Shown: positions 341-32,050 of the stretch, in pieces
How the letters are laid out: each line of letters opens with the position of its first letter
Position numbering within the stretch: the stretch's first letter is position 1
Assembly: GCA_963664435.2 (NCBI GenBank)
Contig: CAXXKM010000003.1
Location: 1,152,001 to 1,216,000, forward strand
From: Longimicrobiales bacterium
GTDB lineage: Bacteria > Gemmatimonadota > Gemmatimonadetes > Longimicrobiales > Gaopeijiaceae
Length of the DNA: 64,000 nucleotides
Direction of reading: 5' to 3'
Program-made: the position numbers and the translations under genes
Notes under the pieces: generated by a model
Databases searched by the model: none
Seen by the model: only the letters and a program-made list of their open reading frames with translations
Told to the model about the DNA's origin: nothing

Positions 341-343
341 CGC
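301..343 (+). repeat. att site, left copy (tRNA 5' half from the anticodon loop)
   Basis: TTGTAAGGCAGGCGCTCTGAACCAACTGAGCTAAGCGCCCCGC, identical to 50466-50508. Confidence 0.92.
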
Positions 344-2263: not shown

Positions 2264-2285
2264 GGCGGGGTGTCCTCCCTGACGG

Positions 2286-3188: not shown

Positions 3189-3195
3189 CGGTCGT

Positions 3196-4427: not shown

Positions 4428-5437
4428 GGGTTCACCTCCTTCGGTGGGTGGGTGTGGGTTCTGCTTTCCCGTTGCGTCCCGGGCTGCGCTCCGGACGGCG
4501 CGGTGATCCAGTGGCCGGTGGGCGCGTCGTAGCCGCATACCTCGAGCGCGTCCTCGACGAACCGTCTGCCGCTGCGGCGGGCCACGTGCAGGACGAGCGC
4601 GATCCCGTCGACGACGCCCCGGCAGGTGACCTCCCAGGGCAGCGCGTCTCCGGCCTGCATGGCGCAGCTCGCGAGCCGCGAGAGCGCGGAGCGCGCGTTG
4701 TTGGCGTGGATGGTGGTCAGCGATCCGCCGTGGCCGGTGTTGAGCGCCTGCAGCAGGTCGGCGGCCTCGCCGCCCCGGACCTCGCCGACGACGATGTGGT
4801 CGGGCCGGTGGCGCAGCGCGTGGCGCACCAGGTCCCGGATCTCGACGGGCGTCTCGGAGAGCGTGGCCCCGGCCTCGAACCGGAGGCAGTTGGCGCGGTC
4901 GATCCTGAGTTCGAGCGTGTCCTCGATGGCGACGATCCGCTCGTCTTCCGGCAGCAGTTCGATCAGCGCGTTCAGGAGCGTGGTCTTGCCCGAGCCCGTG
5001 CCGCCGGAGACCAGGATGTTCTGGCGCGACGCAAGCGTGCTCCGAGCGGCTTCGAGGATGTCCTCAGGCAGCGAGCCCAGGCGCACCAGGTCCTCGGCCG
5101 AGAACGCACGGCCGCCGAACCGGCGGATGGTGATCGCGACCTCGGGACTCGCGGGCGGGGTGCAGATGGCGACCCGCGATCCGTCTTCGAGCCGAGCGTC
5201 CAGGATCGGCCGCGCGGCGGGATCGAGCCCGAGCGGGCGGGCGATGTGGATGGCGGCGCGGTGCAGCCAGGCTGACGTGAGTGCGGGAGCCTCGTGAGGC
5301 TCCAACTTCCCGGCCCGCTCGACCCAGACGTTGCCGGGCCCGTTGATCATGATCTCGGAGACCTGCGCGTCTTCGAGCAGCTCCTCCAGGCCCGGAAGGA
5401 ACGGAGTGAGGTGGCCGACGCCGCTCGCGCGCTTCAT
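4424..5437 (-). CDS. virB11: VirB11/CpaF-family secretion ATPase
   Basis: VSEIMING, Walker A GGTGSGKT, IEDTLEL, LRHRPDHIVVGEVRG, NTGH. Confidence 0.92.
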   Translation of the reverse strand: MKRASGVGHLTPFLPGLEELLEDAQVSEIMINGPGNVWVERAGKLEPHEAPALTSAWLHRAAIHIARPLGLDPAARPILDARLEDGSRVAICTPPASPEVAITIRRFGGRAFSAEDLVRLGSLPEDILEAARSTLASRQNILVSGGTGSGKTTLLNALIELLPEDERIVAIEDTLELRIDRANCLRFEAGATLSETPVEIRDLVRHALRHRPDHIVVGEVRGGEAADLLQALNTGHGGSLTTIHANNARSALSRLASCAMQAGDALPWEVTCRGVVDGIALVLHVARRSGRRFVEDALEVCGYDAPTGHWITAPSGAQPGTQRESRTHTHPPKEVNP

Positions 5438-7476
5438 ATCCGGCCCTCCTCGCGTTGCCGCCAGTAGCCCTGCTCCCTGGGCAGGTAGTGGGGCTTGAGG
5501 TAGACGCGGCGGGCCGGGAGCGACTTGACGCCGTCGTAGGGCAGACAGATCGCCTGGTAGTTGGCGAGCAGCCCGAACTGGCGCGGCGTGAACACGGGCT
5601 CCCTCTGCCGGCGGAACGACTTGCTCGCGCCGATGCTGCCGTCCCCTCCTCCGGCGCGGCCGGACAGGAGCGAGAACTCGGGTTTGTTCGTGGTCTCGGT
5701 GAACGTGTAGGAGGCCTGCGTCTTCATGACGGAGCCGCACATGTCGGACGCGATCTTGGCCGACGCGTCGTCGGACAGCGACAGGAAGATCCGGGTGCGG
5801 AGCGTCTGGACGAGCGTGCGCCAGGCCTCGCCCGAGGGGAGCACGGAGCGAAGCGAGGAGATCGACTGCGTGGCCACGATCGGGATGCACCGGCACTGGC
5901 GCGTGAGCGCGAACGCCTTCTCGTCGCCCGACGGATCGTCCTGCCCGACGGTGGCGAACGCCTGGTACTCGTCGCATATGAACACGGCGGGCCGCATGTA
6001 GCGCTCGGGACGGCGCGCGGCTTCGGCGGGCCGCCGGAGCAGCGCCTGCATCCACGCGTTCTTGAGGAACACGCCGATCGCGCGGGCAAGCGCCGGGTTC
6101 GCGCCGGCGGGCATGTTCAGCGCCAGCACCTTGCCGCCCTCGATCAGGTCGCTGAGCGGCGGCAGCCTCCGGCGGAGTCCCGGCATGGGCTGGACATCCG
6201 GTGCCTCGTCGCCGTCCCCGTCCTCGTCCTCGGTCCGCTTGGCCGGGGGATCGTCGGCCGGCGGCGGCGGACAGAACACGCCGGCCACCTCGGGCTGGTC
6301 GAACAGCGACAGGAAGACGCTGATCCCCTCGACGATCGAGGTGCGGAGCTTGGCGTCGAGCGCCATCCAGTCGTGCCGGTACCATCGTTCGATGGCCTCG
6401 ACCTGCTCGGCGTACTCGCGTCCCGCGCCCCCGCCTTCCGGCTCCGTCCGATATTCGACCTTCAGCTCCGCGAGCAGGGTCGCGCGTTCCGGATCGAGCC
6501 GGCACGCCACCGTGGCGCTGCCGGGCGCCATGTCCCAGTCCCAGTCCTCGAGAGCCTTCCGGTGTGCGTTGAGATCCTTGGCGGCGATGACGGCCCGCAT
6601 CGGACACAGCCGCAAAGCCTCCGCCTTCGCCTCCCCGATCTTGCTGGCGAACAACTCGGCGTCGACCGTGCAGCGGTAGATGTCGCGGAGCGTGACCCAG
6701 CTCCCCGGAAGGAGCCGGTGAAGCTCGACGATCCACCGGACGAGGTTCGTGTATGCCTGCTGCCAGAACGGTTCGCGCGACTTGCCGAAGAGCTGGTTGA
6801 TGAGCGACGCCACGCCGTAGGCCATCGAGTAGGAGTCGAGCAGCGGATCGTCGAGCGGGTTCCACTGCCACGACCCCCCGAGCCCGATTTCGAGGTAGTC
6901 GTCCTCCCGGTCGGCCTCGCACAGGATGCGGCGGACCTGGTGGCAGAAGTCGCCCTTGACTTCGAGCACGAGCGCGCCCGCGCGCCGCCGGGGATCGTCC
7001 GCCTGCCAAGTGAGCAGCTGCCGAGCGAACGGGTACATGCAGGCGGTCGTCTTGCCGGTGCCGACGGCCCCGACGACGAGGATGCCGGTGTAGAGTCCTT
7101 TCTCGGGGACGACGAGCCAGGAGGGCTGGTCGCTCTCGGCGGCCACGGTTGGGTGGTGCAGTTCGCCGACCACGAGCGACGGCGCGTCGTCCTTGGGCGA
7201 GACGGGCCAGGCCGGAAGCCTGCCGCGGTTCCGGCGGCGAGTGAGCGGCTGGATCCAGACCCTCGCGACCGAGACCATGATGCTGCCGGCCAGGAGCACC
7301 GCGACGCCCGGCGCGAGAAAGTACCAGAGGTGGATCGCGCGGTGCAGGCCCGGATCGTGATGGGCGATCAGGTCGAGGTACGGGTTGCCGCCCGGACCGG
7401 GGAACGGCGCGACGAACGTGCGCCAGGCGAGCGCCGTCAGGGCCAATCCGATGAGGACGAGCGTCCACGGCCTCAT
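5434..7476 (-). CDS. virD4: Type IV coupling protein (VirD4/TraD-like)
   Basis: Two N-terminal TM segments, GAVGTGKT, LEVKGDF, WNPL, ICDEYQ, ATQS. Confidence 0.85.
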   Translation of the reverse strand: MRPWTLVLIGLALTALAWRTFVAPFPGPGGNPYLDLIAHHDPGLHRAIHLWYFLAPGVAVLLAGSIMVSVARVWIQPLTRRRNRGRLPAWPVSPKDDAPSLVVGELHHPTVAAESDQPSWLVVPEKGLYTGILVVGAVGTGKTTACMYPFARQLLTWQADDPRRRAGALVLEVKGDFCHQVRRILCEADREDDYLEIGLGGSWQWNPLDDPLLDSYSMAYGVASLINQLFGKSREPFWQQAYTNLVRWIVELHRLLPGSWVTLRDIYRCTVDAELFASKIGEAKAEALRLCPMRAVIAAKDLNAHRKALEDWDWDMAPGSATVACRLDPERATLLAELKVEYRTEPEGGGAGREYAEQVEAIERWYRHDWMALDAKLRTSIVEGISVFLSLFDQPEVAGVFCPPPPADDPPAKRTEDEDGDGDEAPDVQPMPGLRRRLPPLSDLIEGGKVLALNMPAGANPALARAIGVFLKNAWMQALLRRPAEAARRPERYMRPAVFICDEYQAFATVGQDDPSGDEKAFALTRQCRCIPIVATQSISSLRSVLPSGEAWRTLVQTLRTRIFLSLSDDASAKIASDMCGSVMKTQASYTFTETTNKPEFSLLSGRAGGGDGSIGASKSFRRQREPVFTPRQFGLLANYQAICLPYDGVKSLPARRVYLKPHYLPREQGYWRQREEGRI

Positions 7477-7509
7477 GCGTGCAACACCCTTCCCGGAGGG
7501 ATCGATGCT

Positions 7510-7605
7510 GCGGGAGCGACCCCTGGAGGGCGTGGGGGCGAGTTGTGTGAAAACACACTCGCCGCTACGCCGCACCGAGCCTTCGGCGAGGGGGGTCGCT
7601 CCCGC
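7510..7605. other. Candidate oriT (nested inverted repeats)
   Basis: GCGGGAGCGACCCC (7510-7523) pairs with GGGGTCGCTCCCGC (7592-7605), enclosing the hairpin GGCGAGTTGTGT-GAAA-ACACACTCGCC, in the only large gap of the tra operon. Confidence 0.45.
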
Positions 7606-7774
7606 CACGGCCGATGCGGCCCGTCCGGCAACGGGCGGGCGGGCCGCGAGGCCGCAAGACGCCACCGCGCAAGCGGATGGACGGAAGGCCCGGCGTGAAT
7701 CGCCGGAGGGCCGAATCGTGAAACGACCCCTCGCGTCGTTTTCACGCCGCGGTGCGGCACAGCACGCTGGCCGC

Positions 7775-8707
7775 TCATCGGTAGCGGACCCTCGCGAGGC
7801 GCTCGGTCCGCCAGGCGACGCCGCGGTCGATCGATCCGCGCCCGCCCCGCCGGCGCGCTTGTCTTTCGAGCGCGACGCTGCGCTTCAGCGCGGCCTGGAG
7901 GCCGCCGAACTCCTCGAGGACGTGGACCGCGCCCTGAAGGATCGCCCGCTCGATGCGGGCAAGTTCCTCGGCCGTCCCGGGTTCGGTTCCGGCGCGTCCG
8001 GTGGACCCGGCCCATCCGCGCGTCACCCGCCGCGCACGCTGCAGTTCGCGCCCGGTGCGGGCGACAGCGACGACCTCGACCGACCGGCCAAGTCTCCGTA
8101 GCGCGCGCCAGAGTCCGCGGTGCGCCTTGCCCCACGAGCGGAGCGCCGTCGAGGTGTCGTGGCCGGGGTCGGCGTAGACGAACAGGGCGCGCGCCGAGTC
8201 GAGCGCGACGGGCAGCTTGACGGGGAAGTGGCGCCGGGTGTTCCCGGCGGCTCCCCGGTACACGCGCACGGGCAGCAGCGAGCGCTCGATGCCGAGCGCC
8301 TCGAACGCGGCGACCTTCTCGGTTTCGGTCGGCAGCCAAGGCAGGTCGGCATGCTCGATCACGTAGTCGAGCGAAAGCAGGCGCCGCAGGAGCACCTCGG
8401 TCGATGCGCCGCGGCGGTGGCGGATGTGCTCCGCGCCGAGCGCCCGGTAGACGGGCCGTGAGAAGATCCGGCAGACCCGGCCCATGCCGGCGATGCGGGG
8501 CTCGGTCTCCTCGCTCGCGACGCGCGCCGCGATCAGCGCGTGGACGCCGCGCCGGACCTGTTCCGGGTGCGCGTTCATGAACCGCGTCCACTGGGCGCGC
8601 GTGCACACGCCGCTGTGCAGGCACACCAGCGCGATCCACTCGGCCTCGCGTCCCTTCCAGCCGAACGGTTCAAGCGCCTGCTCGCGCCCTTTGAGGTGCG
8701 CGATCAT
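7775..8707 (-). CDS. Hypothetical ICE protein, possibly relaxosome component
   Basis: Coupled to virB8 by overlap; GREAEWIALVCLHSGVCTRAQW start looks winged-helix-like; directly upstream of the oriT candidate. Confidence 0.6.
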   Translation of the reverse strand: MIAHLKGREQALEPFGWKGREAEWIALVCLHSGVCTRAQWTRFMNAHPEQVRRGVHALIAARVASEETEPRIAGMGRVCRIFSRPVYRALGAEHIRHRRGASTEVLLRRLLSLDYVIEHADLPWLPTETEKVAAFEALGIERSLLPVRVYRGAAGNTRRHFPVKLPVALDSARALFVYADPGHDTSTALRSWGKAHRGLWRALRRLGRSVEVVAVARTGRELQRARRVTRGWAGSTGRAGTEPGTAEELARIERAILQGAVHVLEEFGGLQAALKRSVALERQARRRGGRGSIDRGVAWRTERLARVRYR

Positions 8708-9372
8708 CGCTCCTCCCCCGTCACCAGCGCCCGGTCGGCCTGGAGGTAGGTGATGAGGATGCCCATGGGGTTGTGGACGACCAGCTCGGGCGGGATCGAG
8801 TCGAGGAACTCGAACCGGAGCGCGACGGACCAGCGCTCGCGCAGGACCTCCTGTCCGGCCGCGAGATGCACGACCTCGAAGTCGGCCGTGGCGCCGTGCA
8901 GCGGCTCGGGCGAGGGATGGATGCGGAGCACGACCCGCTCGACCTGGCGTTCGGTCTCGGCCGTGCCGGCCGCCACGCTCGCGACCTCGTCACCGTCGCT
9001 GGCGAACGCGGCGTTCGCGAGTTCGGTCGACAGGAACCGGAGGCTCCGGGTCCAGTACTCCTGGACGGTCACGCGGCGGCGCGAGTGGAAGTCGTTGACG
9101 AACCGGTTCAGGAAGTACTTGGTCGTGGGATCGAGCGGATCGGCCTGGGCGGTGGCGGCCTCGTAGGCGAGCGCCTCGGCGCGCCCGACCTCGTCGACCC
9201 GCACCACGATGGGCTTGGGCGGCTCGGTGCCCGCGATGCGCAGCAGGACGAACACGCCGAGGACGCAGCTCGCGGAGAGGAAGATCAGGATCGTCCGCAG
9301 CTTCCGGTTCGCCTGCACCACCTCGCCCCATATCTCGGCGTACTCGCGGCCGGCGTTCCTGTCTCGTTTCAT
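8704..9372 (-). CDS. virB8: VirB8/TrbF-family protein
   Basis: N-terminal TM, PIVVRVDEVG, C-terminal NPMGILI motif. Confidence 0.85.
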   Translation of the reverse strand: MKRDRNAGREYAEIWGEVVQANRKLRTILIFLSASCVLGVFVLLRIAGTEPPKPIVVRVDEVGRAEALAYEAATAQADPLDPTTKYFLNRFVNDFHSRRRVTVQEYWTRSLRFLSTELANAAFASDGDEVASVAAGTAETERQVERVVLRIHPSPEPLHGATADFEVVHLAAGQEVLRERWSVALRFEFLDSIPPELVVHNPMGILITYLQADRALVTGEER

Positions 9373-9392
9373 TACCAGGATCTCCTCATGTC

Positions 9393-10370
9393 TTAGACGG
9401 GCTTCGCGGGGACGGCGGCCTTGCTGGCGCCCTGCATGACGAGCGCGACGAACCCGGACCCGGCGGAGCCGGAGCCGGAGACCAGCATCGAGGCGAGTTC
9501 GCCGACCTTGAGCCCGGCCCAGAGGCCCGAGACGACGAGCGGCATGAGGACGACGGCCCAGAGCCAGAGCTCGCCCGCGTCGGCGGTGCCGGTGCCCATG
9601 AGGGCGTCGGCGTAGGTCGTGATGTAGCCGAGCCCGACGCCCATGAAGACGCGGAGCACGGCGCCGGCCACGACGCCGTAGAGCGTGTAGACCATCAGCG
9701 TCCTGAACCATCCCCAGAACAGGAACGAGAGCGGCTCGAAGAGCAGGAACGCGATGAACACGGGGCCGAGCAGGATCGCGATGGCGATCGCGACCTGCGC
9801 CCAGATCACCTGCGCGTAGGTGATGCAGAACAGCGCGAGCAGGCAGACCACGAGCGACGCGCCCATGCAGAGCGAGACCAGCGAGGAGAAGATCACGGTC
9901 ACGCCCGCAGTGACGATCGAGAGCAGGTTCCCGCCCGACCAGGCGGCGCTCAGGTGCGCGGAGTACGCCTGCACGAGCGCCGCCATCTCCGTGTAGCCTG
10001 CCGACACCACGTCGGACAGGAACAGGTTCTGGAGCCAGGCGCCTCCAGCCGCGATGGTGGCCGGGAACGTGAGCCCGACGCCCGGGATCGGCACGATGTA
10101 GTAGTGGAGCAGCGTGCGGGGGATGGCGATCCCGATCACGAGCTTGACGATCTCCCAGGGCTGGAACGTGCCGCTGAAGGCGATCTTGAGGCCCGTCCAG
10201 GCGACCATGACGGCGGCGAGCCCGCCCCAGAGCTGGAGCCCGAGCGTGTGCACGTCGGGCGCCGCGCCGCCGACCACGGTGTCGAGCACCACGTCCAGGA
10301 AGCTCTTGAAGTCCTGGAGCTGATCGTCAGGGATCTGCGTGGGTACGTTCGGATCGATCGACTGCTGCAT
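9393..10370 (-). CDS. virB6: VirB6/TrbL-family polytopic membrane protein
   Basis: Many TM helices, LLGPVFIAFLLFEPLSFLFWGW motif, T4SS context. Confidence 0.8.
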   Translation of the reverse strand: MQQSIDPNVPTQIPDDQLQDFKSFLDVVLDTVVGGAAPDVHTLGLQLWGGLAAVMVAWTGLKIAFSGTFQPWEIVKLVIGIAIPRTLLHYYIVPIPGVGLTFPATIAAGGAWLQNLFLSDVVSAGYTEMAALVQAYSAHLSAAWSGGNLLSIVTAGVTVIFSSLVSLCMGASLVVCLLALFCITYAQVIWAQVAIAIAILLGPVFIAFLLFEPLSFLFWGWFRTLMVYTLYGVVAGAVLRVFMGVGLGYITTYADALMGTGTADAGELWLWAVVLMPLVVSGLWAGLKVGELASMLVSGSGSAGSGFVALVMQGASKAAVPAKPV

Positions 10371-10382
10371 CGCGAACGCCCC

Positions 10383-11291
10383 CTAGTTGCCGCCCGTGTA
10401 GAACGACGGGACACGCAAGAGCAGCCCGTCGCGGAGCGCGCCCCGGTTCCGGGAAGCCGCGTCGCGAAGCGTGCCCGCCATCGCGTTGGCGCGCGCCCGG
10501 CTCTCGCTCCACGCGGCGAGTTGTTCGAGCCGCGCGAGTTCGGCCAACTGCGCGCGGCTCGCCTCCCGGGCGGCCTGCTGGGCGAGCACCTGGGCCACGC
10601 CCGCGTTGATCCGGCCCTGGCTCAGCGCGGCCGCGACGCCGGCCTGCTGCAGAGCGGTGTTGGACAGATTGCCGTTCGCGGTCAGTCCGGCGAACGAGCC
10701 CTGCGCGCTCTCGATGGTCTCGGCGAGCGCGGACGCCGCGTCGAGCGTCGCGTAGTCGAGCACCCGCTGCCGGTCGGCGGCTTCGCGGGCACGGCGGTAG
10801 TCTTCGGCCGCGCGCGCCGCCGCCGCGGGCGGCTGGTCGCGGAACAGCGCGAGGATGTCGGCCTCGCTCACCCGGTCGGCCGCGCCCCGGGCGCTCCGCC
10901 ACAGTCCGGTGAACGAGCGGCCGCCTCGTCCGAAACCCCGGACCGCAGCGACCGTCTCGCGGGCCGTGCCCCGGAAGTCCGAGCCCCAGGAGAGCCCGTC
11001 GCGCACCAGTCCCACGGGCTCGGCGGCGAGCCGGGAGAACGGCGCGAGGAGCGCGTCGATCTCGCCGCGCGCGGCGCGCTCCATGTGGTCGAGCTGGTCC
11101 TCGAGCTCGGTGAGCTGGCGGGCCATCGACCGGATCTGGCTGACCTGGTTCGTGATCTGCCTGATCTGATTCGCGATGATCGTGGCCCGCTGGACCCAAC
11201 TGCCGAAGTCGAACTGGGCAGTCGCGGGCGCGGGGCTCGCAATGGTGAGAAACGGGACGAGCAGGGCGGGTGTGAGGATGCGGTATCGCAT
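10383..11291 (-). CDS. VirB5/TrbJ-like secreted helical protein
   Basis: Signal peptide followed by a Q-rich coiled coil (NQIRQITNQVSQI); immediately upstream of virB6. Confidence 0.6.
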   Translation of the reverse strand: MRYRILTPALLVPFLTIASPAPATAQFDFGSWVQRATIIANQIRQITNQVSQIRSMARQLTELEDQLDHMERAARGEIDALLAPFSRLAAEPVGLVRDGLSWGSDFRGTARETVAAVRGFGRGGRSFTGLWRSARGAADRVSEADILALFRDQPPAAAARAAEDYRRAREAADRQRVLDYATLDAASALAETIESAQGSFAGLTANGNLSNTALQQAGVAAALSQGRINAGVAQVLAQQAAREASRAQLAELARLEQLAAWSESRARANAMAGTLRDAASRNRGALRDGLLLRVPSFYTGGN

Positions 11292-11308
11292 GGGTGTGTC
11301 CTTTCGTG

Positions 11309-12568
11309 TCATCGGTGTGCGGTGGGGGTGGGAATGAGGACATCCGCAGTGAACCAGATGCGGAGCCGGTGGCCCGCGCGGATCGTGATCTCGGGCATCC
11401 GGTTCAGGAACCGGTCGAGTACGGAGGTGGCGCTGCCTCCGAGCCCCTGGCCGATGGCGGCCCGGAGGCCGTAGGGCGAGGCTCCGGCCAGCGTGAGTCC
11501 GCTCAGCGCGCCCACGGCGCCCGCGGCCGCGAACGTCGAGAAGTAGTGGCGGCTCACCTGGTCCTTGAGCGCGCCCTCGCCCGCCTGGTTCAGCCCGGCG
11601 AACTCAAGGTCGATCCAGCTTCCGTCGGGCATCAGCAGCCGGTGGAACGCGACCGCGAGTCGGCTCTGGTCGCGGTTCTGCGCGGCCCGGGCGGTGCCGG
11701 CGACGCGCGCGCCGCGCGGAACTAGGACCCGTTGCCGGTCCGCCGAGTACAGCGGCACCGACACCATGGCGAGCACGGGTCCGGGGAACTCGCCCGAGAG
11801 TTGGGTGAGCAGCACGGCTTCGAGGAACGAGCCCTCCCGGATCCGTTCCCAGCCGGGCGCGTCGGCGGGGACCACGTGCCGGCCGGGCTCCGCCGTGCCG
11901 GGTGCGCGAGTGCTCTGCGACAAAGCTCCTGCAGAGCCCGGCAGGAGCCCTTCGCCTGCCAGGACCGTCGGCATCTCCGCTTCGAGGGCGGCGACCGACT
12001 GCCCAAAGGACGCGAGCATTCGGTCGAGCTCGGCCTCGGGCGGCTCGGGCTCGACCGCCGGCAGGCGGGCGGCGTTCCGCGCCTCGTTCGGGTCCCTATA
12101 GGTCTGCGCGACTGGGATCGAGCGGAGCGAGCGCGCCTGCCGCTCGATCTCTTCGAGCCGGAGCGCCTCGCGAAGCTCGTACTCGGCCTGGACCATGCCG
12201 GCCACGCCATCCCATCCGCTTCCGGCTCCGCTTTCGCCTCCCGCTCCACTCCCGCCACCGGCCCCAGCCGTCTCGGCCTCGGCCTGACGGCGCTCCCTGT
12301 CGGCGCGGGCGTCGTCTGCCGCCGCCTGTAGGGCATGGCGTTCCGCCTCGGCGCGCAGCCGTCCCTCGAACGAGCGGCCCGCCCGGTCGTCCACGGCCTG
12401 CGCCTCGAAAGGGGCGGGGGCCATCGGGTCCTCTTCGGGACCCGTGAGCGACGACGAGAACAGCATGCCGGCGATGAGCACGCCGATAAGCGCGATCCCC
12501 GCCTTGGTGATGATGCCGCCCGGCAGCGCGCCCTTCGGCTCCTTGATCCACTGCTTCCAGCGGCTCAT
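11309..12568 (-). CDS. virB10: VirB10/TrbI-family protein
   Basis: TM anchor, GSFLEAVLLTQL, VLVPRGARVAG, GEGALKDQVSRHY, PEITIRAG. Confidence 0.9.
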   Translation of the reverse strand: MSRWKQWIKEPKGALPGGIITKAGIALIGVLIAGMLFSSSLTGPEEDPMAPAPFEAQAVDDRAGRSFEGRLRAEAERHALQAAADDARADRERRQAEAETAGAGGGSGAGGESGAGSGWDGVAGMVQAEYELREALRLEEIERQARSLRSIPVAQTYRDPNEARNAARLPAVEPEPPEAELDRMLASFGQSVAALEAEMPTVLAGEGLLPGSAGALSQSTRAPGTAEPGRHVVPADAPGWERIREGSFLEAVLLTQLSGEFPGPVLAMVSVPLYSADRQRVLVPRGARVAGTARAAQNRDQSRLAVAFHRLLMPDGSWIDLEFAGLNQAGEGALKDQVSRHYFSTFAAAGAVGALSGLTLAGASPYGLRAAIGQGLGGSATSVLDRFLNRMPEITIRAGHRLRIWFTADVLIPTPTAHR

Positions 12569-13401
12569 CGCGCGTCTCTGGGCTCGAACCGCCAACCCGT
12601 CCGCTCGTCGCCGATCTGGAGCCATCCGTCGCCCAGCACGTGGCGGGCGACGTAGAGGCCGTCCTCCGTCAGATCGAACGCGACCAGGCTCGGCTCGCCG
12701 TCCCGCAGCTCGTAGAGCGCGGGCGCTTCCTGCGCGCGCGAGCGCAGATACGTGAACCGGCCGTCGTGCCACATCGCCTCGACGAGGAACGGCCGCCTTG
12801 ACGCATCCCGGTCCAACCGGTACTCGAACCGGAGACTTTCGGGATAGGAGGCGCGGAACGCCTCGATCTCCGCTTCCGCCGCAGCCTGGGTTCTGCGCGC
12901 CGCCTCGGCCGCCTCCGCGGCCATCTCCCGGTAGGCCGCGACCTCGCTCCGCGCGACGAACGCGGGCGCGCCCGCGCCGGACGTGCCCGCGGCCTCCGCG
13001 CCCTCCTCGACTCGGACGACCAGATGCGGGGGTTCGTCGCCGTGCTCCGCGACCAGAAACGAGTAGATGCGACCCGATTCGCAGACGAGCGCGATGTTGG
13101 TCGCCGCGTCCTCGGCTAGGGGCTTGAGGTACGCGACGTTCGCCGCGCCGGTCAGGTGCCAGTACTCCGAGTCGCCGGCCACGAAATCGAGGATGCGCTC
13201 GGATGCAGGGAGCACGATTACCGTAGTATGGCGTACGCGCGCGCGTACGCCATGGATCCGGTCCTGGCCGTCCTCGGCGGCCGGCACCCGGAGGAACGTC
13301 GCCTCCTCCTCGGGCTGCCTGGCGACTTTGTGTTCCTGGGCGGCCACTGGCAAGGCCCCCAACAGAAGCGTCAATGCGATAGGTATCGTTGCGGGTCTCA
13401 T
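12565..13401 (-). CDS. virB9: VirB9/TrbG-family protein
   Basis: Signal peptide, AGDSEYW, YLKP, TN, WHDGRFTY, PALY motifs. Confidence 0.88.
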   Translation of the reverse strand: MRPATIPIALTLLLGALPVAAQEHKVARQPEEEATFLRVPAAEDGQDRIHGVRARVRHTTVIVLPASERILDFVAGDSEYWHLTGAANVAYLKPLAEDAATNIALVCESGRIYSFLVAEHGDEPPHLVVRVEEGAEAAGTSGAGAPAFVARSEVAAYREMAAEAAEAARRTQAAAEAEIEAFRASYPESLRFEYRLDRDASRRPFLVEAMWHDGRFTYLRSRAQEAPALYELRDGEPSLVAFDLTEDGLYVARHVLGDGWLQIGDERTGWRFEPRDAR

Positions 13402-15854
13402 CGTGTTGTGTCCTCCTTGGGTCTAGGGGGTTGGGCGAGAGGGTTCGCCAGGACTTCGAGGGCCTTGGCGAGTCCGTGTCTCTTGACGGCCTCGGCCCGC
13501 CGCTCGGCGTCCAGAGGCGAGGACGTGTAGAGCCAGTAGCTCTCCGGATCGACTTCGAGGCGGAGCACGGCCGCCTCGTCCGGGCGCCGGAGATACAGTC
13601 CGCGCTTCGGCATCAGCTCCCGGATCCGCCCCACCTCCGACTCGTTCAGCCGGAACAGGTCGCCGACCTCGTCCGGCAACTCGGGGTTCGCCAGGAACAA
13701 CTTCGTCGGGATCGACTCCAGCAGCGCCGAGGCGCCGGGTGTTCCGGTCATGTCCACGGCCGACTGGGTCGCGAGCACGAGCGCGGCGTTCTTCTTCCGC
13801 CACGTCTTGGCCGCCTCGGCCAGGTAGGCGAGCACCGCCGGGTCGGCCAGGTAGCGCCACGCTTCGTCCACGACCATCAGCTTGAGCCGCGCGGCTTCCC
13901 GGGGGTCCTCGATCTCGAGGCGCATGCGTTCGAGCAGATAGGCCAGCGCCGCCTCGCACAGATCCGCGTGCTCGGCCGCGCCCGCCAGATCGATCACCTG
14001 CCAGTCCCGGAACTCGAGGTCGGCCCCGCCCACCGGAGCGTTGTCGAAGAACCGGCCCCAGACGCCGTCGCCGGTCCAGCGGCTGAGCGCCGGCCACATG
14101 GCGGCCGGGAGGGAGCCGGTCAGCACGCTCAGCGTGCGGCGCTCGGCTCCGAGCGCGTACAGGTCCTCGATCCGAGAGCGGATCTCGCTCGTGTCCGCGC
14201 CTGTCGGCTCGTATCCGCCGAGCCTCAGCAGGCGGAGCACCCAGCCGGTCAGGAACTGGAACGTGCGCGTGCCCGCGGGAAGCGCGAACGGCTGAAGGCT
14301 CAGCCCGGACTCGGCGTCGCCGCCGGGCGTGAGCTCGAGGTAGGAGCCCCCGAGGAACCGAGTCAGCCAGCGGTACGAGCCGCCCAGGTCCAGGATGAGC
14401 ACGCGCGGGCCGTACTTGAGCGCCTCGACCAGGAGGAAGTTGAGCGCAAAGCTCTTGCCCGAGCCCGTCGCGCCCAGGATCAGCGTGTGGCCCACGTCGC
14501 CGCGGAACAGGTCGTAGTGGTAGGTGGTGCGCCACGGCGTCTCGAACACCGCGAGCGACTCGCGGTCCAGGTGCCTGCACCGGGCCAAGCCCCGGGGTGG
14601 CCCGAACACGGGCGCGAGGCAAGCCGCGAGCCCGGCCGAAACGAACACCGTCCTCACCTGCCGCTTGCGGGGCTGGGCGGGCAGACGCGAGAACCAGACG
14701 GGCAGCTGGCCGTAGCCCTCGCGGACGGCCTTCGCGTCATGCGCGGCGAACAGGCGGCGCACGTCGCCGTCCAGCCGCTCGATCTCGTCAAGTTCGCCGT
14801 GGAGCGCAACGGTGAGCGACGCGTCGCCGTAGGCCACGCCGTCGGCTTCGAGTTCGACCAGCGCGGCGCCCAGCCGGTCCGACTCGACCGCGGCGGCCGA
14901 ATCGACCATCGCCGACGCCGTGCCCTCGGTCTCCTGCACATGCGCCATCATCGAGTAGCGGCGCGAGAAGTAGTGACGCTGCGCGCCCCGGATCCGGCGC
15001 CTGGCCGCTTCCACGGTCCACGGTCGCCATTCGAGCGAGACGGTCAGCGTCGCGTCCAGGCAGTAGAGATCCCTGAGCAGGTTCGCGTGGGCTTGGCCCG
15101 GCGGCGACAGAAGCGAATACAGGATCACCGGCTCACCGTCGAGCCTCAGGTGACTGCGCTCGGCCTCCAGCTCCGACAGTGCGAGCCGCCAGTTCATGCC
15201 GCTGCCGGTCGCGCCGTCCCACGCCATGCCCGGGCGGTTGATCAGTTCCGACAGCAGCCGGGACGCTTCCACGGCCCCCAGCATCTCGACCGGCGTGTGC
15301 TCGGCCACGAGCGACCGGCCCGCATCGACCATCGCGCGGAACCGGTCCGCCGCCGCCTCGACCTCGGACGCCAGATACGTCGGCGCTCCCTTCCTCCGTC
15401 GCTTGCGCAGCCGGGCGAGCCGGGCCAGCGGTCCGGACCGCGTGCGCTTGGCCACCGGACGGAGAGCGGACCCGAGCGACCAGACGACGTAGGCGTCGAG
15501 GCGCTGCACGCGGCGGTCGAGGAACGCGGTGCGCTTCCGCTTCGAGACGGCCGCGATGTCCGAGCCATACTCTTCGCTCCCCCGCGCGATGGCCGCCGGG
15601 CGCCGGAGCAGATAGAAGTAGAGGCGCGCGCTCGGGTCGAGTCCCGACAGCAGGCGCTGCCAGAGACCCAGCACCCGGTCGACCTGCTCCGGCGTGCGCC
15701 CGTCCACGGCGGCGGGCAACAGCCGGCCCGCAGCGATCAACTCGCCCGAGCGCGCCAGGCAGGTGCGGCCATCGTCGAGCCAGCCCCAGTAGGGCAGCTC
15801 CTCGGCCAGCGAGCCCGCCGCCTCATGCGCCCGAAGTTCCTCGGCGACTCTCAC
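13398..15854 (-). CDS. virB4: VirB4/TrbE ATPase
   Basis: GHTLILGATGSGKS, LDLGGSY, VVDEAW, RKKNAALVLATQS; GTG start overlaps the virB3 stop. Confidence 0.92.
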   Translation of the reverse strand: MRVAEELRAHEAAGSLAEELPYWGWLDDGRTCLARSGELIAAGRLLPAAVDGRTPEQVDRVLGLWQRLLSGLDPSARLYFYLLRRPAAIARGSEEYGSDIAAVSKRKRTAFLDRRVQRLDAYVVWSLGSALRPVAKRTRSGPLARLARLRKRRRKGAPTYLASEVEAAADRFRAMVDAGRSLVAEHTPVEMLGAVEASRLLSELINRPGMAWDGATGSGMNWRLALSELEAERSHLRLDGEPVILYSLLSPPGQAHANLLRDLYCLDATLTVSLEWRPWTVEAARRRIRGAQRHYFSRRYSMMAHVQETEGTASAMVDSAAAVESDRLGAALVELEADGVAYGDASLTVALHGELDEIERLDGDVRRLFAAHDAKAVREGYGQLPVWFSRLPAQPRKRQVRTVFVSAGLAACLAPVFGPPRGLARCRHLDRESLAVFETPWRTTYHYDLFRGDVGHTLILGATGSGKSFALNFLLVEALKYGPRVLILDLGGSYRWLTRFLGGSYLELTPGGDAESGLSLQPFALPAGTRTFQFLTGWVLRLLRLGGYEPTGADTSEIRSRIEDLYALGAERRTLSVLTGSLPAAMWPALSRWTGDGVWGRFFDNAPVGGADLEFRDWQVIDLAGAAEHADLCEAALAYLLERMRLEIEDPREAARLKLMVVDEAWRYLADPAVLAYLAEAAKTWRKKNAALVLATQSAVDMTGTPGASALLESIPTKLFLANPELPDEVGDLFRLNESEVGRIRELMPKRGLYLRRPDEAAVLRLEVDPESYWLYTSSPLDAERRAEAVKRHGLAKALEVLANPLAQPPRPKEDTTR

Positions 15855-16156
15855 TCGCTGCCTGCCCGGATCTTCAGGTGCCACGGCTCGTCCGTCCACT
15901 TGCCCGGATCGAACCGCGCCGGGTGGCGCGACGCCGCGCGGAGCACCGCGAGCATGGCCGGGTCCTTCCGGCCCGCGAGCCAGCCCGCGCCGTAGCAGCC
16001 GGCGAAGATCACGCCGCCCGCCACCAGCGAGGCCGTCGCGTTCCAAACCGAGAGCGCGAGCGTGGCGCCCAGCAGGAACAGCCGCCGCTCGACACCCAGT
16101 ACGGTCAGCGGACGGTTGAGCGCGGCGTAACCCGGCCAGCGCCTCAAGCCCCGCAT
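15851..16156 (-). CDS. virB3: VirB3-family protein
   Basis: ALNRPLTVLGVER, two TM segments, KDP motif. Confidence 0.85.
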   Translation of the reverse strand: MRGLRRWPGYAALNRPLTVLGVERRLFLLGATLALSVWNATASLVAGGVIFAGCYGAGWLAGRKDPAMLAVLRAASRHPARFDPGKWTDEPWHLKIRAGSE

Positions 16157-16443
16157 CAGAACAGCCAGGCCAGGAAGTTCACGGCGCCGACGGCCATCCC
16201 GATCCCGAAGATGATCCCGGCCAGCGTGCGCTTGCTGCCGCCCTCGCCGAACGCGAACATCAGCCCGCCGACCACGATCGCGATCAGCGACAGCCCGCGC
16301 GCGATCGGACCCGTGAACTGCGTCTGTAGCTCGTCCACCGCCTCGACCCACGGGCTCGTCCCCTGCGCCAGCAGCACACCCGGCGTCAGCGCCAGCAGCG
16401 CGGCCCAGGCGGCCGCCTTCAGCGTTCTCGACAACGTTCTCAT
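16156..16443 (-). CDS. virB2: VirB2/TrbC pilin
   Basis: Signal peptide, SPW...FTGPIARGLSLIAIVVGGLMFAFGE. Confidence 0.88.
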   Translation of the reverse strand: MRTLSRTLKAAAWAALLALTPGVLLAQGTSPWVEAVDELQTQFTGPIARGLSLIAIVVGGLMFAFGEGGSKRTLAGIIFGIGMAVGAVNFLAWLF

Positions 16444-16991
16444 TCGCTCTCCTCCTCGGGAGTCAGTTGTGGTGTTGGCGCCGGGGCGTCGTCCCCGACC
16501 CGGTCGTGCTCGATCCGCTCGTCCATCCATTCCAGGACCTCCGACTCGATCCAGCGCACCGCGCGCCCGCTCAGCCGGACCGCCCGCGGAAAGCGCCCGT
16601 CCGCCGACCAGTCGTAGATCGTCGTCCGCGACAGGCCGGTCAGCGCCTCGACTTCCGAGATCCGCAGGAAACGGATCGTCGGCCTCGTTCTCGCAGTCCT
16701 CCGGTCTCTACTCATCGCTCCACTCCGGTTCGTCTTCCTCCACCGTCTCGCCGGCCTCGGCGCGACAGGCCGGGCGTACCGAGCCATCGCAGCGGCCGGA
16801 TCCGCCTCGTAGGCGGCCAGGAAGGCCAGAATCCGGTCCGCCGTCCTGAGCGACGGCGAGCGCCCCCGCTCGATCTGGCGCAGCAGGTTCGGGTCGCCCA
16901 CCGCCAGCATGCCGAGCGTCGTCGGACTCATGCCCGTGCTGCCCAGAAACGCGTTCAGCCGTGCGTTGAATTGCTCCTCCAGGGTCTGCAT
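16440..16991 (-). CDS. Transcriptional regulator: Cro-like HTH fused to AlpA domain
   Basis: N-terminal GMSPTTLGMLAVGDPNLLRQIERGRSPSLRT; C-terminal FLRISEVEALTGLSRTTIY...FPRAVRL...WIESEV. Confidence 0.8.
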   Translation of the reverse strand: MQTLEEQFNARLNAFLGSTGMSPTTLGMLAVGDPNLLRQIERGRSPSLRTADRILAFLAAYEADPAAAMARYARPVAPRPARRWRKTNRSGAMSRDRRTARTRPTIRFLRISEVEALTGLSRTTIYDWSADGRFPRAVRLSGRAVRWIESEVLEWMDERIEHDRVGDDAPAPTPQLTPEEESE

Positions 16992-17657: not shown

Positions 17658-20237
17658 TCAGTTCGTGACGACCACGGCCCGGTACTCCGTTGGGTCCCGA
17701 AGGCCGTAGCCCTCACCCGTGACCTGTAGAACGCGGACCCGGTACAGAGCGAACTGGTTGCGGTCCGGCACGTGGAACTGCATGAGGGAACCCGGCCGGA
17801 GAACGCCCGCCACGACGATCTGATGGCGCTCCCCTGTTCCGGATTCGTACAGCTCAAGACCGGGAGCCCGCACGGCGTCGATTGTGGGACCCTCCAACTG
17901 CAGCAGGACGCCGATATCGGCTCTCGCTGCCGGCCCACTCCACTCGACCGTCAGGAAACCCGGATCCGGTACGGTGGCGGCCGGGGCGGTTGGCGCTATC
18001 GCATCACCGGTGCATGACCAGGTCATTGCGGCTGCGAGCAGCACGGTGAGCGCCCATCCGGCCTTGCCCGCCCGGCGACCCGTGCCGCGGACTCGCGAGC
18101 GTCCGCGGCGCCTGGAGTTCCCCCGCCGTCCGGCTGCCGCAGCCCCGAGGAGGGCGGCGCCCGAGGTGGGACTGGAATCGGTAGGTGTTCCTCCGCACCG
18201 GGCTTCACCTCTTCGGCAGCGCTCGATCCAGGAGAGCAGGTCCCCGAGATCGTAGCCGCCGTTCCGGTTGCCCAGAAGGTCGAGCGCGGCCTGCCGGGCC
18301 TCGCTGAGCGTCCCCTCACCGAACAGCGCCGCGGCGGCCTCGTCCGGGCTCAACCCGTCCGCTACGGCCAGCGCCTCGTCCGCGACAGCCAACGGGTCTT
18401 CCACCACATCGCCGCTGGCCACGTCACCCGAGCTCGCCGACTGCCGCCAGTCCACCTTATGGCTCGGGTCGTGGCCCAGCCCCGCGTGCGTCAGGTCTGC
18501 GTCCGCACCTGTAGCCTTGGACCTGATCGTGCCACCGTTGAGCCGAAGCGTGTTCGCGACCACCGCGATCCCTTGGGTTGAAAGATTAGGCTCCACCACC
18601 ACGTGGGCGAACGTCATGTCGTCCCCTCCGCCGCTCTCGTAGCTGGCCCACTTCTCGCCCCAGTGCGCCGGGTCCATGTCGATCTTCAGCTGCGGCGTGC
18701 CCGTCACCTCCACCGGCTGGCTGAAAGTCAGCGTCACGCGGATCGTATCGCCCAAGACATAGGTGCTGTCCGCGCCGGCGTCCGATGACACGTTCACGCC
18801 GGTCGCCTCCGGCGCCGACGGCCCCTGGATCGTCGCCGAGGGGGAGTTCGACAGCGGTCGACCGTCCGGCGTGCAGATCGCGGCTGCCGCCGAGCAATCG
18901 GTCGTCGCCGCCAGCGTCACGGTCACGTCCTCGGAAGAGAGCGGCCGCACCGTGATGATCCAGCGCTGGTTCTGGTTCTGCGCCGCCCGGCGCGCGCGCG
19001 TCACTTTGCCGTTCGTCGCACTAAGCGCCTCGTCCCTGAGCTTCTTGTAGGGCAGCTTCCCGGGGAAGTTCTCGCTGAAACGAAGCTCGAAGCTAAAGTC
19101 GGCGCGCCTGCCGCCGTGCGAGGCCGGCACGTCGTGGAACGCCGCCGTCAGCGGTGCACTGTCGTCCGAGGCGGTCACAGACACGGGTTTCGAGGGCGCG
19201 AAACTACCCCCCGCCTCGAGCGAAACACGGAAGCTGTAGACCGTCCCGGCGCTCAGTCCGGTCACTGTGTGCGCCACCGCGTCGGCGGCAAGCTTCGCCA
19301 CCCTGCTCCAGGTCCCATCCGCCTGCTGCTGTTGCACTTCGCTCCAGACCTCACCCACCGACGCCGCCTGCGCTACCCACACGGCTTGATCCGGTAGCGT
19401 CCATGCTAGGTCGACCGTAGTCTGTGTCGCGTTCGACGCCGTCAAGCCGGTGGGCGGTTTCAGATGCTCCTGCGTACTCGTCCACGTCGCGACTTCGGAA
19501 TTCGCCTGATAGTTGTCGGTGAAGTGACTGACGCGGAAGTAATCAGTGTGACCCCATCCGTGTGATATCCTCATTGTTCGCGAGGTTGAGTCCGCATGGA
19601 TTGGCGCCAGTCCATAAAAGTGGAAATCCGGGTATGCCGACACGTGAACTTCCACCTTGGTCACGACCACGCCCTCGGGGTGGACGGGCGGCGTCCAGGA
19701 CAGATCGACCGTCTTCCCGAACTCGTTCGAAAACGTGAGGTCCGTCGCGGGCTTCGGAGCCAGGATGGTCACCGGCGCGTCGGAGAACTTCGGCACCAAG
19801 GTGCCGTCGGTGTAGAGCAGGGCCGCGGGTATCCCATTCGGGTACCCCGGAGAGGGGGGCGAGTTGGGGACCTCGTCCGGATCGTAGCTCACCGTGACTG
19901 TCTGCCCCGGTTCCGCACGCGTGTCGAATTCGAGTGTGGCCGTCCAGGCGTTCCACTTCATCTCAGTCGGATGCACGCTGGCGCTGTCCGAGATCCCGGC
20001 GACCGTGAACCCGTGCACGACCTGTTTGGGCATCCCTAACCCCACCGCCTTATCGAATCGGAGTGTCAGCGTCGTCCCGTCGATCCTCGCGTACTCCAGC
20101 CCCGGGGGCATGGTGTCCTGTGCCGCAGCAGTCCCGGCACCCGCCAGCAGGGCGAGGGCCAGGGCGAGTGCCGCCTGCCACGGACGCGCGAGGCACGCCA
20201 ATCCGTCCGGCTTAGTCCTTTGACCAATCATGTTCAT
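17658..20237 (-). CDS. Large secreted/surface protein (SwmB-like, fibronectin type III and Ig-like domains)
   Basis: Signal peptide ...AGTAAA-QD; GTTLTLRFD...VTVSY; PPTGLTASNATQTTVDLAW...GLSAGTVYSFRV (Fn3); late hydrophobic segment. Confidence 0.8.
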   Translation of the reverse strand: MNMIGQRTKPDGLACLARPWQAALALALALLAGAGTAAAQDTMPPGLEYARIDGTTLTLRFDKAVGLGMPKQVVHGFTVAGISDSASVHPTEMKWNAWTATLEFDTRAEPGQTVTVSYDPDEVPNSPPSPGYPNGIPAALLYTDGTLVPKFSDAPVTILAPKPATDLTFSNEFGKTVDLSWTPPVHPEGVVVTKVEVHVSAYPDFHFYGLAPIHADSTSRTMRISHGWGHTDYFRVSHFTDNYQANSEVATWTSTQEHLKPPTGLTASNATQTTVDLAWTLPDQAVWVAQAASVGEVWSEVQQQQADGTWSRVAKLAADAVAHTVTGLSAGTVYSFRVSLEAGGSFAPSKPVSVTASDDSAPLTAAFHDVPASHGGRRADFSFELRFSENFPGKLPYKKLRDEALSATNGKVTRARRAAQNQNQRWIITVRPLSSEDVTVTLAATTDCSAAAAICTPDGRPLSNSPSATIQGPSAPEATGVNVSSDAGADSTYVLGDTIRVTLTFSQPVEVTGTPQLKIDMDPAHWGEKWASYESGGGDDMTFAHVVVEPNLSTQGIAVVANTLRLNGGTIRSKATGADADLTHAGLGHDPSHKVDWRQSASSGDVASGDVVEDPLAVADEALAVADGLSPDEAAAALFGEGTLSEARQAALDLLGNRNGGYDLGDLLSWIERCRRGEARCGGTPTDSSPTSGAALLGAAAAGRRGNSRRRGRSRVRGTGRRAGKAGWALTVLLAAAMTWSCTGDAIAPTAPAATVPDPGFLTVEWSGPAARADIGVLLQLEGPTIDAVRAPGLELYESGTGERHQIVVAGVLRPGSLMQFHVPDRNQFALYRVRVLQVTGEGYGLRDPTEYRAVVVTN

Positions 20238-20266
20238 CCTCGAGTTCGCCTCCTGTTTCGCAGGGA

Positions 20267-20304
20267 GTTTTGCGCGCGATAACGGGATTTATCGCGCGCA
20301 AAAC
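20267..20304. repeat. lox/dif-like recombination site 1
   Basis: GTTTTGCGCGCGATAA-CGGGAT-TTATCGCGCGCAAAAC: 16-bp perfect arms around an asymmetric 6-bp core. Confidence 0.8.
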
Positions 20305-20338
20305 GCGCGGTCCTTGCGACCGAACCGGAGGCCACTCG

Positions 20339-21322
20339 ATGCCAGATGCAGACACAAAACCACACATAGATGCCTTGACCGGTGCAGAATCAGACGCGGA
20401 GGTGGCGGAGCAGTTAGCTCGCTTCTTCGAGACGGTTAGCAGCGCCTTCAGCCGCAACACGGAACGGGCGCTGAGGGCCGACCTGCGGGTATTCCTCGCC
20501 TGGTGCCAGCAGGACGGCATGTTGGCCGTGCCCGCGGGCCCCAACACCTTGATCGCCTTCATCGACGACGTGGGCAGCAGCAGGGCTCCGGCCACCGTGC
20601 GCCGCTACGTATCCAGCATCGCTACGCTCCACAAGACGCTACGCCTGCCGAACCCGGCGGACAGCACGGCCGTGAAGCTGGCCCTCCAGCGGATGTACCG
20701 GAACCGGGGACGCAGACAAACGCAGGTGACGGGGCTGACCTGGCCGCTCCGGAACCGACTGATCAAGGCGGCGGGAAAGCGGCTGATCGACGCGCGGAAT
20801 CGCGCGCTGCTAGCCGTGGCCTACGACACGCTGTTGCGCCGATCCGAACTGGTGTCGCTGGACGTGTCCGACCTGGTGGAGGAAGCCGATGGTTCCGCAA
20901 CGCTGCTCGTGCGAACGAGCAAGACGGATCCCGAGGGGGCAGGCGCCATGCTCTTTCTCGCGCGCGACACGGTGAGGATCGTCAAGATATGGCTCGGCCG
21001 CAGCGGGACGGCCGGGGGGCGGCTGTTCCGTTCGGTCCGTAAGGACGGCTCGGTGGGGGAGCAACTCCCTCCGAGTCAGGTGCCCCGCATCTACAAGTCG
21101 ATGGCCCTGCGTGCCGGGCTTCCCGCCGACACCGTGGACGCCTTGGCGGGGCACAGCACGCGCGTGGGGCCGGTTCAAGACATGATTGCCTGCGGAATCG
21201 AGTTACCGGCGATCCTGCAGGCCGGGCGCTGGAAGAGTGCGCGGATGGTGCAACGCTACGGCGAGCGACTGCTGGCGCGACGTAGCGGCGCGGCGCAATT
21301 GGCCGCCAGGCAGCAGCGCTGA
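20339..21322 (+). CDS. Cre-like tyrosine recombinase
   Basis: SAM-like N-terminal domain (SRNTERALRADL, APATVRRYVSSI), LLRRSEL, SKTD, GHSTRVG, AGRWKS, RY; GGAGG RBS. Confidence 0.92.
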   Translation: MPDADTKPHIDALTGAESDAEVAEQLARFFETVSSAFSRNTERALRADLRVFLAWCQQDGMLAVPAGPNTLIAFIDDVGSSRAPATVRRYVSSIATLHKTLRLPNPADSTAVKLALQRMYRNRGRRQTQVTGLTWPLRNRLIKAAGKRLIDARNRALLAVAYDTLLRRSELVSLDVSDLVEEADGSATLLVRTSKTDPEGAGAMLFLARDTVRIVKIWLGRSGTAGGRLFRSVRKDGSVGEQLPPSQVPRIYKSMALRAGLPADTVDALAGHSTRVGPVQDMIACGIELPAILQAGRWKSARMVQRYGERLLARRSGAAQLAARQQR

Positions 21323-21467
21323 AGATTGCCTCTTCGTAGAGGTCTTAAGGACTTGCGGCCGACGGTCGGCATGACCGCTGCTCCCGGTCCTCTTCCTCCG
21401 ACTGGCGCCCGAGACTGCGGTCACATATCTTTTGACGGCGTCACAGAGATGCGATCAACTAGCTGTA

Positions 21468-21497
21468 GCGCGCGATAAATCCCGTTATCGCGCGCAA
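21468..21497. repeat. lox/dif-like recombination site 2 (inverted relative to site 1)
   Basis: GCGCGCGATAA-ATCCCG-TTATCGCGCGCAA, the exact reverse complement of 20270-20299. Confidence 0.8.
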
Positions 21498-21703
21498 CGC
21501 GGACCGAAGATGTTCTGAGGACATCACCCATTCGGGCCCTCCTGTTCCATCAATTGGCGTCTTCCGGGCGAATATCGAATCACTGTGCCCGTCAAGTCGC
21601 TCTCTTTATTCACACCCGGCAGGGCTCGCCGCGTTCCTTAGGGAACCCGCGGCCGGCCGACGGACTGAATCGCCGTTCGGCCTGCCGGACTGGCTGAGAC
21701 CTC

Positions 21704-22170
21704 TTGCAAGGAGCATGCCCGTCGCATTGGGCAGCGCTCGCATCGTGGCGGGGCGGGAGGCAGGGGTGTGCCGAGGGCCTGTTACCTTCGTTGCTCCGTC
21801 ATGGCCAAGCAGCCATCCGCTACCATCACCGCGAAGCGGGACACGCGAACCCGGCCGACAACAAAGGGGTGTGCCGCGTCCTGGGCATCACCGGCCCGGC
21901 TGCGAAAGACCGCACCACGAAACAGGCTGCCGCGCTGACGGCCCGGGCGGTGGAGGCGATCCGTACTACCGCCCATGTGACGTGCACCGGACCCTGGGCG
22001 GTCGGACCGAGGACGCGCACGGCCCGCCACCGCAGACGCGTGGGCATGGCGCTCATTCAGTGATGCGGGACGCCATGCTTCGCCGCTCCGAGAATGTCGC
22101 GGTCATCTGAGCCGACGTGGGATTCGAGAACGACGGGTCGGCAGGGGTCTTTCATGCGCCGCTCAAAGAG
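21704..22170 (+). pseudogene. Degenerate Cre-like recombinase fragment
   Basis: AAIRYHHREAGHANPADNKGV, KQAAALTARAVEAIR and VMRDAMLRRSE occur in different frames. Confidence 0.6.
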
Positions 22171-22368
22171 CGACTAGGAGGCCAACTGGGCCACGGCCAA
22201 ACTTAGGTGGGACCGTTGCGACCGAACTACGGGCGACCCACGGCCCGCACACACCTCTCCCACGCGCCTGTCTTCAGCGTGCGTTGGTGGTGCCGCCTCG
22301 AAGCATTTGCACCGGATCGGTATGGCGGGGACCTCGTGGACCACGCCCCGCCTCGTTAACGTACTGGC

Positions 22369-32047: not shown

Positions 32048-32050
32048 CCG

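Follow-up and report, generated by a model that had tools for sequence, protein, structure and literature searches.

The window, the whole stretch of 64,000 nucleotides that was analysed, comes from a Longimicrobiales genome and carries a recombinase gene between two inverted lox-like sites, one of which adjoins the start of a divergent surface-protein gene. The features discussed below are as follows (window coordinates):

266..343, minus strand: listed feature of the tRNA-Val gene (tRNA-Val itself 266–340)
391..16991, minus strand: core of the carrier element, with genes for an integrase (391–1557), ArdC, a VirB11-like ATPase, a coupling protein, VirB8, TrbL/VirB6, TrbI/VirB10, CagX/VirB9, a VirB4-like protein, VirB3, TrbC pilin and AlpA/HTH
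17658..20237, minus strand: surface or secreted protein of 859 aa, with a signal-peptide-like N-terminus, an SWM repeat (residues 40–119) and an FN3 domain (residues 261–354)
20269..20302: site 1, 34-bp lox-like, arms ending in GATAA and starting with TTATC, core CGGGAT
20339..21322, plus strand: Cre-type tyrosine recombinase of 327 aa, start codon 36 nt inside site 1
21403..21431, plus strand: candidate outward promoter A by motif only, TGGCGC-17-TATCTT, with the −10 box 33 nt before site 2
21420..21445, plus strand: pair of GTCACA boxes, spaced 20 bp apart, that overlaps the promoter region, possible regulator boxes
21432..21460, plus strand: candidate outward promoter B by motif only, TTGACG-17-TCAACT, with a degenerate −10
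21465..21498: site 2, 34-bp lox-like, core ATCCCG at 21479–21484, inverted relative to site 1
21713..22204, plus strand: decayed second recombinase gene beyond site 2, 44% identical over 169 aa to a divergent paralog in locus L059

Residues 17–313 of the recombinase match Cre (E 2.9e-29, phmmer against the PDB), a full-length homology that covers both domains, and all 17 PDB matches are Cre or Tre. R167, K195, H272, R275, W298, and Y307 align with the catalytic R-K-H-R-W-Y set of Cre and are intact. The Pfam family is Phage_integrase, which together with the Cre homology rules out membership of the Hin-type invertases; the likeness to Hin is one of working only. A start at TTG 20270, given in the sequence-only reading, was not borne out, and the gene starts at ATG 20339. 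A single-sequence structure model (mean pLDDT 40.9) was too poor to use. No relative was found in the viral contigs with the query used. The best matches in the plasmid collection were below 60% identity; of two plasmid relatives inspected, one, the 48%-identical Methylorubrum relative L147, has a single upstream site, and the other has no site by the pattern used. The intact relative of the decayed second recombinase (L059 18619–19641) has a lox-like site with related arms downstream.

The earlier description of a recombinase gene between palindromic sites with reverse-complement cores and of a 30-bp inverted repeat was confirmed by coordinates: arms 20270–20299 and 21468–21497 form a perfect 30-nt inverted repeat, and the core at 20283–20288 (CGGGAT) is the reverse complement of that at 21479–21484 (ATCCCG). 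The 6-bp core of that description stands, and the site anatomy is best read as Cre-type 13-8-13, in which the central 6 bp are the exchange overlap. Each site, like Cre-type sites, is 34 bp long with 13-bp arms and an 8-bp spacer and lies near the gene, and the segment is bounded by inverted repeats, as invertons are. The perfect palindrome of site 1 spans 20267–20304 (16-6-16). A chance inverted repeat is ruled out: among the inverted pairs 200–2500 bp apart in the 4.5-Mb genome, only this one is perfect over 30 nt, and in five genomes scanned with the site pattern, matches occurred only as pairs at recombinase genes (backward-pattern control, 0). Palindromes of the form arm-N6-arm with at most 1 mismatch occur at 6 places genome-wide, all paired around 3 recombinase copies. 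Excision or mobilisation via the sites is ruled out by the inverted cores of 74/74 cassettes. A third half-site, which co-varies with arm type, is found 173–209 nt inside site 2 in 33/54 cassettes (L004–L033 and others), except that in one of them, which bears an insertion, the distance is 1645 nt; the window is without one.

The ATG of the surface gene at 20237 lies 29 nt from site 1; a ribosome-binding site is present and there is no room for a promoter before site 1, which agrees with the earlier remark that little promoter room is left between the site and this divergent gene. The gene is the putative target of the switch, and we infer from its domains that the 859-aa protein may be an adhesin. 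Among 23 site-1-side open reading frames scanned across the family, 16 carry adhesin-type domains (FN3, cadherin-like, Calx-beta, SWM, CARDB, or TbpB); the remaining 7 comprise Sel1, a transposase, a LuxR regulator, and four without a domain match. An atlas search with the surface protein gave only leads under 0.9. In the second genome copy (G000:C3:549185-552894), the surface gene is frameshifted near codon 277–280 and has a 10-bp duplication at its start.

The cassette is carried by a tRNA-integrated conjugative element. Positions 301–343, the end of the tRNA-Val gene that holds its 5′ part, recur exactly at 50466–50508 as a 43-bp direct repeat, and the second copy is likely the other end of a roughly 50-kb island. 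About 22 kb, from integrase to cassette, is present in three genome copies at 89%–96% identity, and a fourth related element in the genome has no cassette. Defence-like cargo lies at 23775–34848 (an HsdM fragment, GmrSD-N and HEPN, an AAA/AbiEii-type ATPase, a McrBC pair, and an HNH gene). Named relatives are MAGs of Gemmatimonadota, Acidobacteriota, and Gammaproteobacteria, and one run matching the window region is labelled sponge metagenome. The distribution is patchy: the cassette occurs in 8/61 relatives, in 13/151 genomes of the family, and in 7/301, 2/11, 3/201, 2/35, and 8/351 genomes of samples centred on other carriers.

For comparison across the family, we assembled 74 non-identical cassettes with both sites. 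Left out were (i) duplicates (L035, L036, L038, L045, L068, L114, L116, L118, and re-fetches); (ii) fragments and one-site loci (L019, L039, L047, L052, L128, L132, and L138); (iii) L046, whose site 2 is displaced by an insertion and whose cores match; and (iv) L018, a divergent paralog without sites, and also L100–L102. Sites were chosen on arm motif and palindromy, not on the core, and site 2 of L028 and L031 was placed by hand. The cores of the two sites match in 71 of the 74 cassettes, which represent 16 core types. Differences within pairs fall at 3/444 core positions versus 225/2072 arm positions; these counts are descriptive, kin cassettes not being independent. In the first 54 cassettes, the two most variable core positions match in 54/54 and equally variable arm positions in 70%–89%, the whole 34-mers are identical between both sites in only 7/54, and the outer two spacer positions differ within pairs in 6/54 and 3/54, so that it is the central 6 bp that must match. 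The core types are scattered across the recombinase tree, the co-variation is core-specific across recombinases 55%–100% identical, and the recombinase genes are intact in 67/74 cassettes. The same holds within the genome: the window cores CGGGAT/ATCCCG are CTGGAT/ATCCAG in two paralogs 95%–97% identical, a one-base change mirrored at both sites. Cre exchanges strands across a 6-bp overlap inside the 8-bp spacer, and homogenisation confined to the core is therefore the mark expected from strand exchange. Judged from this pattern, we take the lox-like sites to be working recombination sites. The cores of L013, L134, and L137 differ by one base between the two sites; these may be locked copies or intermediates of a core change.

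Both orientations of the cassette were found in relatives. Locus L139 (genome G955) and L141 (G1026) have flanks 98.6% and 92%–98.7% identical, between which the cassette is reversed at 96.6%–98.9% identity, and all four junctions fall at the sites. L140, from the same genome as L139, has a flipped junction in which the outer arm comes from one site and the inner arm from the other; this locus lies at a contig start, and the contig end does not continue it. L139, L140, and L141 have a common frameshift near codon 6 of the recombinase, from which it follows that the flip needed intact paralogs in trans (L143 and L144 in those genomes). L140 and L141 are up to 99.8% identical across two genera, which could reflect very recent transfer or shared binning, and a binning artefact could also account for the G955 and G1026 copies. 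In a second pair, L103 and L104, one common flank (97.8%) is joined to a reversed cassette (93.9%), and the inner arms move with the cassette while the outer arm stays; an exchange between copies would account for this pair no less well than a simple flip. In L125, the whole cassette is flipped, the cores match, and the 328-aa recombinase is intact; in L025 and L081, giant surface genes lie on the far side of site 2, and L057 and L058 are truncated copies bearing an ON-type junction. Mis-assembly is an unlikely source of the flipped copies, because any read spans the 34-bp repeat and the arm variants recombine at the core.

The sequence-only reading had named homologous loci that lack paired sites and show only one orientation as what would speak against a switch. 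The opposite was found on both counts, with paired inverted sites in 74 cassettes and both orientations between identical flanks in relatives. Within the window's own subclade (3 genome copies, L001, and 5 full-length metagenome loci), no flipped copy was found and all are OFF. The assembled contigs of 4 of the 23 runs (X1, X2, X5, and X6) had no strand-change joint over 19000–23000, in assemblies that drop rare variants.

The assignment of the OFF state follows from the promoter signals. The TTGACG hexamer reported earlier as lying inside the segment, aimed at site 2 and followed by a weak −10, was located at 21432–21437, and its −10, TCAACT, is degenerate. At the homologous position, L002 has TTGACG-17-TACAAT and L003 has TTGACG-17-TAGGAT; at the position of candidate promoter A, the two paralogous copies have TTGCGC-17-TAAGCT. 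Among the near-consensus signals that read outward inside site 2 are those of L002 and of L006 (TTGCGG-17-TAGAAT). A standard consensus promoter and terminator scan of 20000–22000 found nothing. We scored 54 cassettes, in which kin are not independent, with a weight matrix custom-built in this analysis. The 75 nt inside site 2 read outward had a mean score of 8.4, compared with 5.0–5.5 for the five control windows and 6.1 for shuffled sequence (n = 54), and a score of at least 8 was reached in 33/54 cassettes inside site 2 outward versus 2/54 inside site 1 toward the surface gene. An outward promoter-like signal at site 2 thus appears to be conserved across the cassette family, and the degenerate boxes of the window may, by their motifs, have promoter activity. 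The 2/54 figure rules out the window as an ON state via a promoter inside site 1. Since the signal inside the segment aims at site 2 and none aims at the surface gene, the window is read as the OFF state. Boxes similar to GTCACA are also present within site 2 and, in a sister subclade, in the flank that holds the sensor gene. The idea of a general recombinase promoter that depends on orientation was rejected, as scores on simulated flipped junctions showed no difference (23 versus 18 of 54); in some cassettes, a −10-like box overlaps site 1 and would act in either orientation.

When the 74 cassettes were classed by their flanking open reading frames, 64 were OFF, 2 probable OFF, 4 ON, 2 had a double site-2 flank, and 2 were unresolved. 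A symmetric Cre reaction is expected to give about 50:50, so something drives the OFF state. The recombinase is intact from its canonical internal start in 62/64 OFF copies versus 1/4 ON copies; two of the other ON recombinases start outside site 1 and read through, and one is broken. In the ON-type loci L093 (10808–11869) and L094 (10252–11313), the reading frame of the recombinase begins outside site 1 and runs through it, inversion would cut off the head of the gene, and a second recombinase paralog lies beyond a LuxR/STAND gene.

The recombinase gene starts only 36 nt inside site 1, so the flank can influence how it is transcribed. A subclade of 24 cassettes has an inward TANNNT box 4–7 nt outside the non-surface site (22/24 versus 0/24 on the surface side; background about 1%), with tandem TCAC repeats ahead of it and a GAF-PAS kinase–response-regulator gene behind. 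Two subclade members are without the box, among them L125, the sole ON copy whose gene is intact. These sequences suggest that the flank −10 box would drive the recombinase only in the ON orientation, making an OFF-biased switch with a reset promoter. An inward −10 box at that spacing is absent in 50/50 cassettes outside the subclade, window included; for the OFF bias of the window copy, selection against ON cells is as plausible as a reset. A precedent for OFF bias is FimE, which is more abundant in ON cells (PMC9881135). Five homologs of the GAF-PAS kinase–regulator (60%–69%) are encoded elsewhere in the window's genome (G000 C1:888437, 916358, 1078361, and 1511078; C3:1248787).

We propose that the recombinase would bind both arms of each site and exchange strands across the 6-bp cores. 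Because the cores are inverted, the 1.23-kb segment, with the recombinase gene and the outward promoter, would flip. In the OFF state, as assembled, the promoter would aim away from the promoterless surface gene; in the flipped ON state, it would lie about 60–100 bp upstream of that gene. The OFF bias would most likely arise from a recombinase expressed more in the ON state, which resets the switch, and/or from a cost paid by ON cells. That the cassette family inverts is highly probable, and it is likely that the cassette is a self-contained invertible-promoter switch for the surface gene, built from Cre/lox-type parts and carried on an integrative conjugative element. The earlier proposal of a phase-variable switch is thus supported by the paired sites and by both orientations in relatives, whereas we infer the flip of the window copy, the activity of its promoter, the control and adhesin role of the surface gene, and the cause of the bias.

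A wider scenario is offered tentatively. Conjugative elements could spread a portable, signal-gated Cre/lox switch among symbionts of three phyla, which would dock before diverse giant surface-protein genes. The ON state would be a short pulse, the recombinase being under a flank promoter controlled by the sensor-regulator; genome copies could act in trans and trade flanks via shared cores, and core changes mirrored at both sites could give lox variants that are orthogonal and insulated from one another (natural matched cores number at least 15).

Other functions were weighed for the same structure. The cassette might invert mainly as a two-way or regulatory device, in which the promoter alternates between the surface gene and a gene beyond site 2 or the flip serves element transfer and not cell adhesion. 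This is improbable. In L029, L005, and the short subclade, sensor-regulator genes do point away from site 2; the gene beyond site 2 is a GAF-PAS kinase/response regulator in one subclade, and in L023, lipoprotein genes (TbpB-like; subtilase) read outward on both sides (3275–4855 and 7017–9743), a possible two-way switch. The cassette also adjoins the conjugation operon in the window and several relatives, which would fit a transfer role, and the site-2 side of the window is a decayed recombinase; the switch there may be near-silent. Across the family, the site-2 flanks vary (inward-pointing LuxR genes, restriction genes, and pseudogenes), whereas in most loci a surface gene that starts near the site occupies the site-1 side.

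It is more doubtful still that the sites are hand-over points, at which the main work of the recombinase would be to trade flanks among copies of the element, and so to shuffle surface genes or resolve multimers, with inversion as a by-product. Genomes have 1–5 cassettes, which usually share one core; related flanks adjoin different surface genes, and chimeras exist: L010 and L004 have site-2-type flanks at both ends, having arisen either by recombination between copies or by a flip and a later exchange. L055 (10141–16139) likewise has a cassette, without a surface gene, between inverted copies of the site-2 flank; the inverted flanks of L010 and L055 are 95%–99% identical. Exchange or resolution would need no more than one site per copy, which is what the plasmid relative L147 has, yet even genomes that have a single pair (G062 and G932) retain two inverted sites whose cores mirror each other, a full two-flank inversion is seen, and the outward promoter signal is conserved. 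A relic, in which an ordinary Cre-like resolvase has a duplicated site of no current function, would suit the single orientation of the window's subclade and its degenerate promoter boxes and is very improbable in view of the core-specific co-variation across such divergent recombinases, the predominantly intact genes, and the natural flipped copies.

The preferred reading, a self-contained invertible-promoter switch, joins features of several known systems. The natural role of Cre is that of a dimer resolvase. With Cre/loxP of phage P1, Dre/rox, Vika/vox, Nigri/nox, Panto/pox, and the YR series, the cassette has in common Cre homology, a 34-bp palindromic site, and the requirement for matched spacers. 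GATA next to the spacer is the motif of active sites (PMC10250229), and the window sites have GATA there too. Mining papers give one site per recombinase (PMC4957104), and the accessible parts of both sources treat Cre-type enzymes as one-site tools; two predicted sites with the same arms and a 7-nt gap are reported (PMC10250229). By contrast, two inverted sites here enclose the gene together with a promoter-like signal, and natural inversion is seen in relatives. The closest tested relatives, YR14 and YR16 (Methylobacterium/Methylorubrum), are not among the 8 active of 17 enzymes in PMC10250229, which makes the recombinase and its sites a weaker candidate for genome engineering than had been stated.

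The E. coli fimS element with FimB/FimE, and invertons generally, resemble the proposed switch in a tyrosine recombinase, an invertible promoter, and an adhesin-type target. The Fim recombinases are encoded outside their element, which is short and has short repeats, whereas here the recombinase gene itself flips and the sites are full lox-type palindromes; searches restricted to short intergenic invertons would miss such cassettes. The R64 shufflon (Rci/sfx) also combines inversion by a tyrosine recombinase with a conjugative element and a surface protein, and it swaps coding ends at asymmetric sites. Membership of this class is ruled out, because both sites here are intergenic and the target starts 29 nt outside site 1. 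In the open literature (subscription papers and preprint supplements lay outside the scope), we found no description of a natural self-inverting Cre/lox promoter switch.

The hin gene lies inside its invertible segment. The proposed switch further resembles the Salmonella Hin/hix system in an invertible segment of about 1 kb from which a promoter turns a surface-structure gene on or off (PMC3798978). The Hin enzyme is a serine invertase and needs Fis and an enhancer, whereas the present enzyme is a Cre-clade tyrosine recombinase that has 34-bp sites and is encoded on a mobile element, in several copies. The cassette would offer uncultured Gemmatimonadota, Acidobacteriota, and Gammaproteobacteria, of which at least some are sponge-associated, a mechanism for bet-hedging with very large surface proteins, and the family shows, like a table drawn up by nature, which spacers are compatible and which arms co-vary. 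Known Cre-type enzymes serve as tools and as single-site resolvases; here one would work as a self-flipping promoter switch, a design that synthetic biologists build by hand. By analogy, the cassette would work like Salmonella Hin while being built from Cre/lox parts, a variant of invertible-promoter phase variation.
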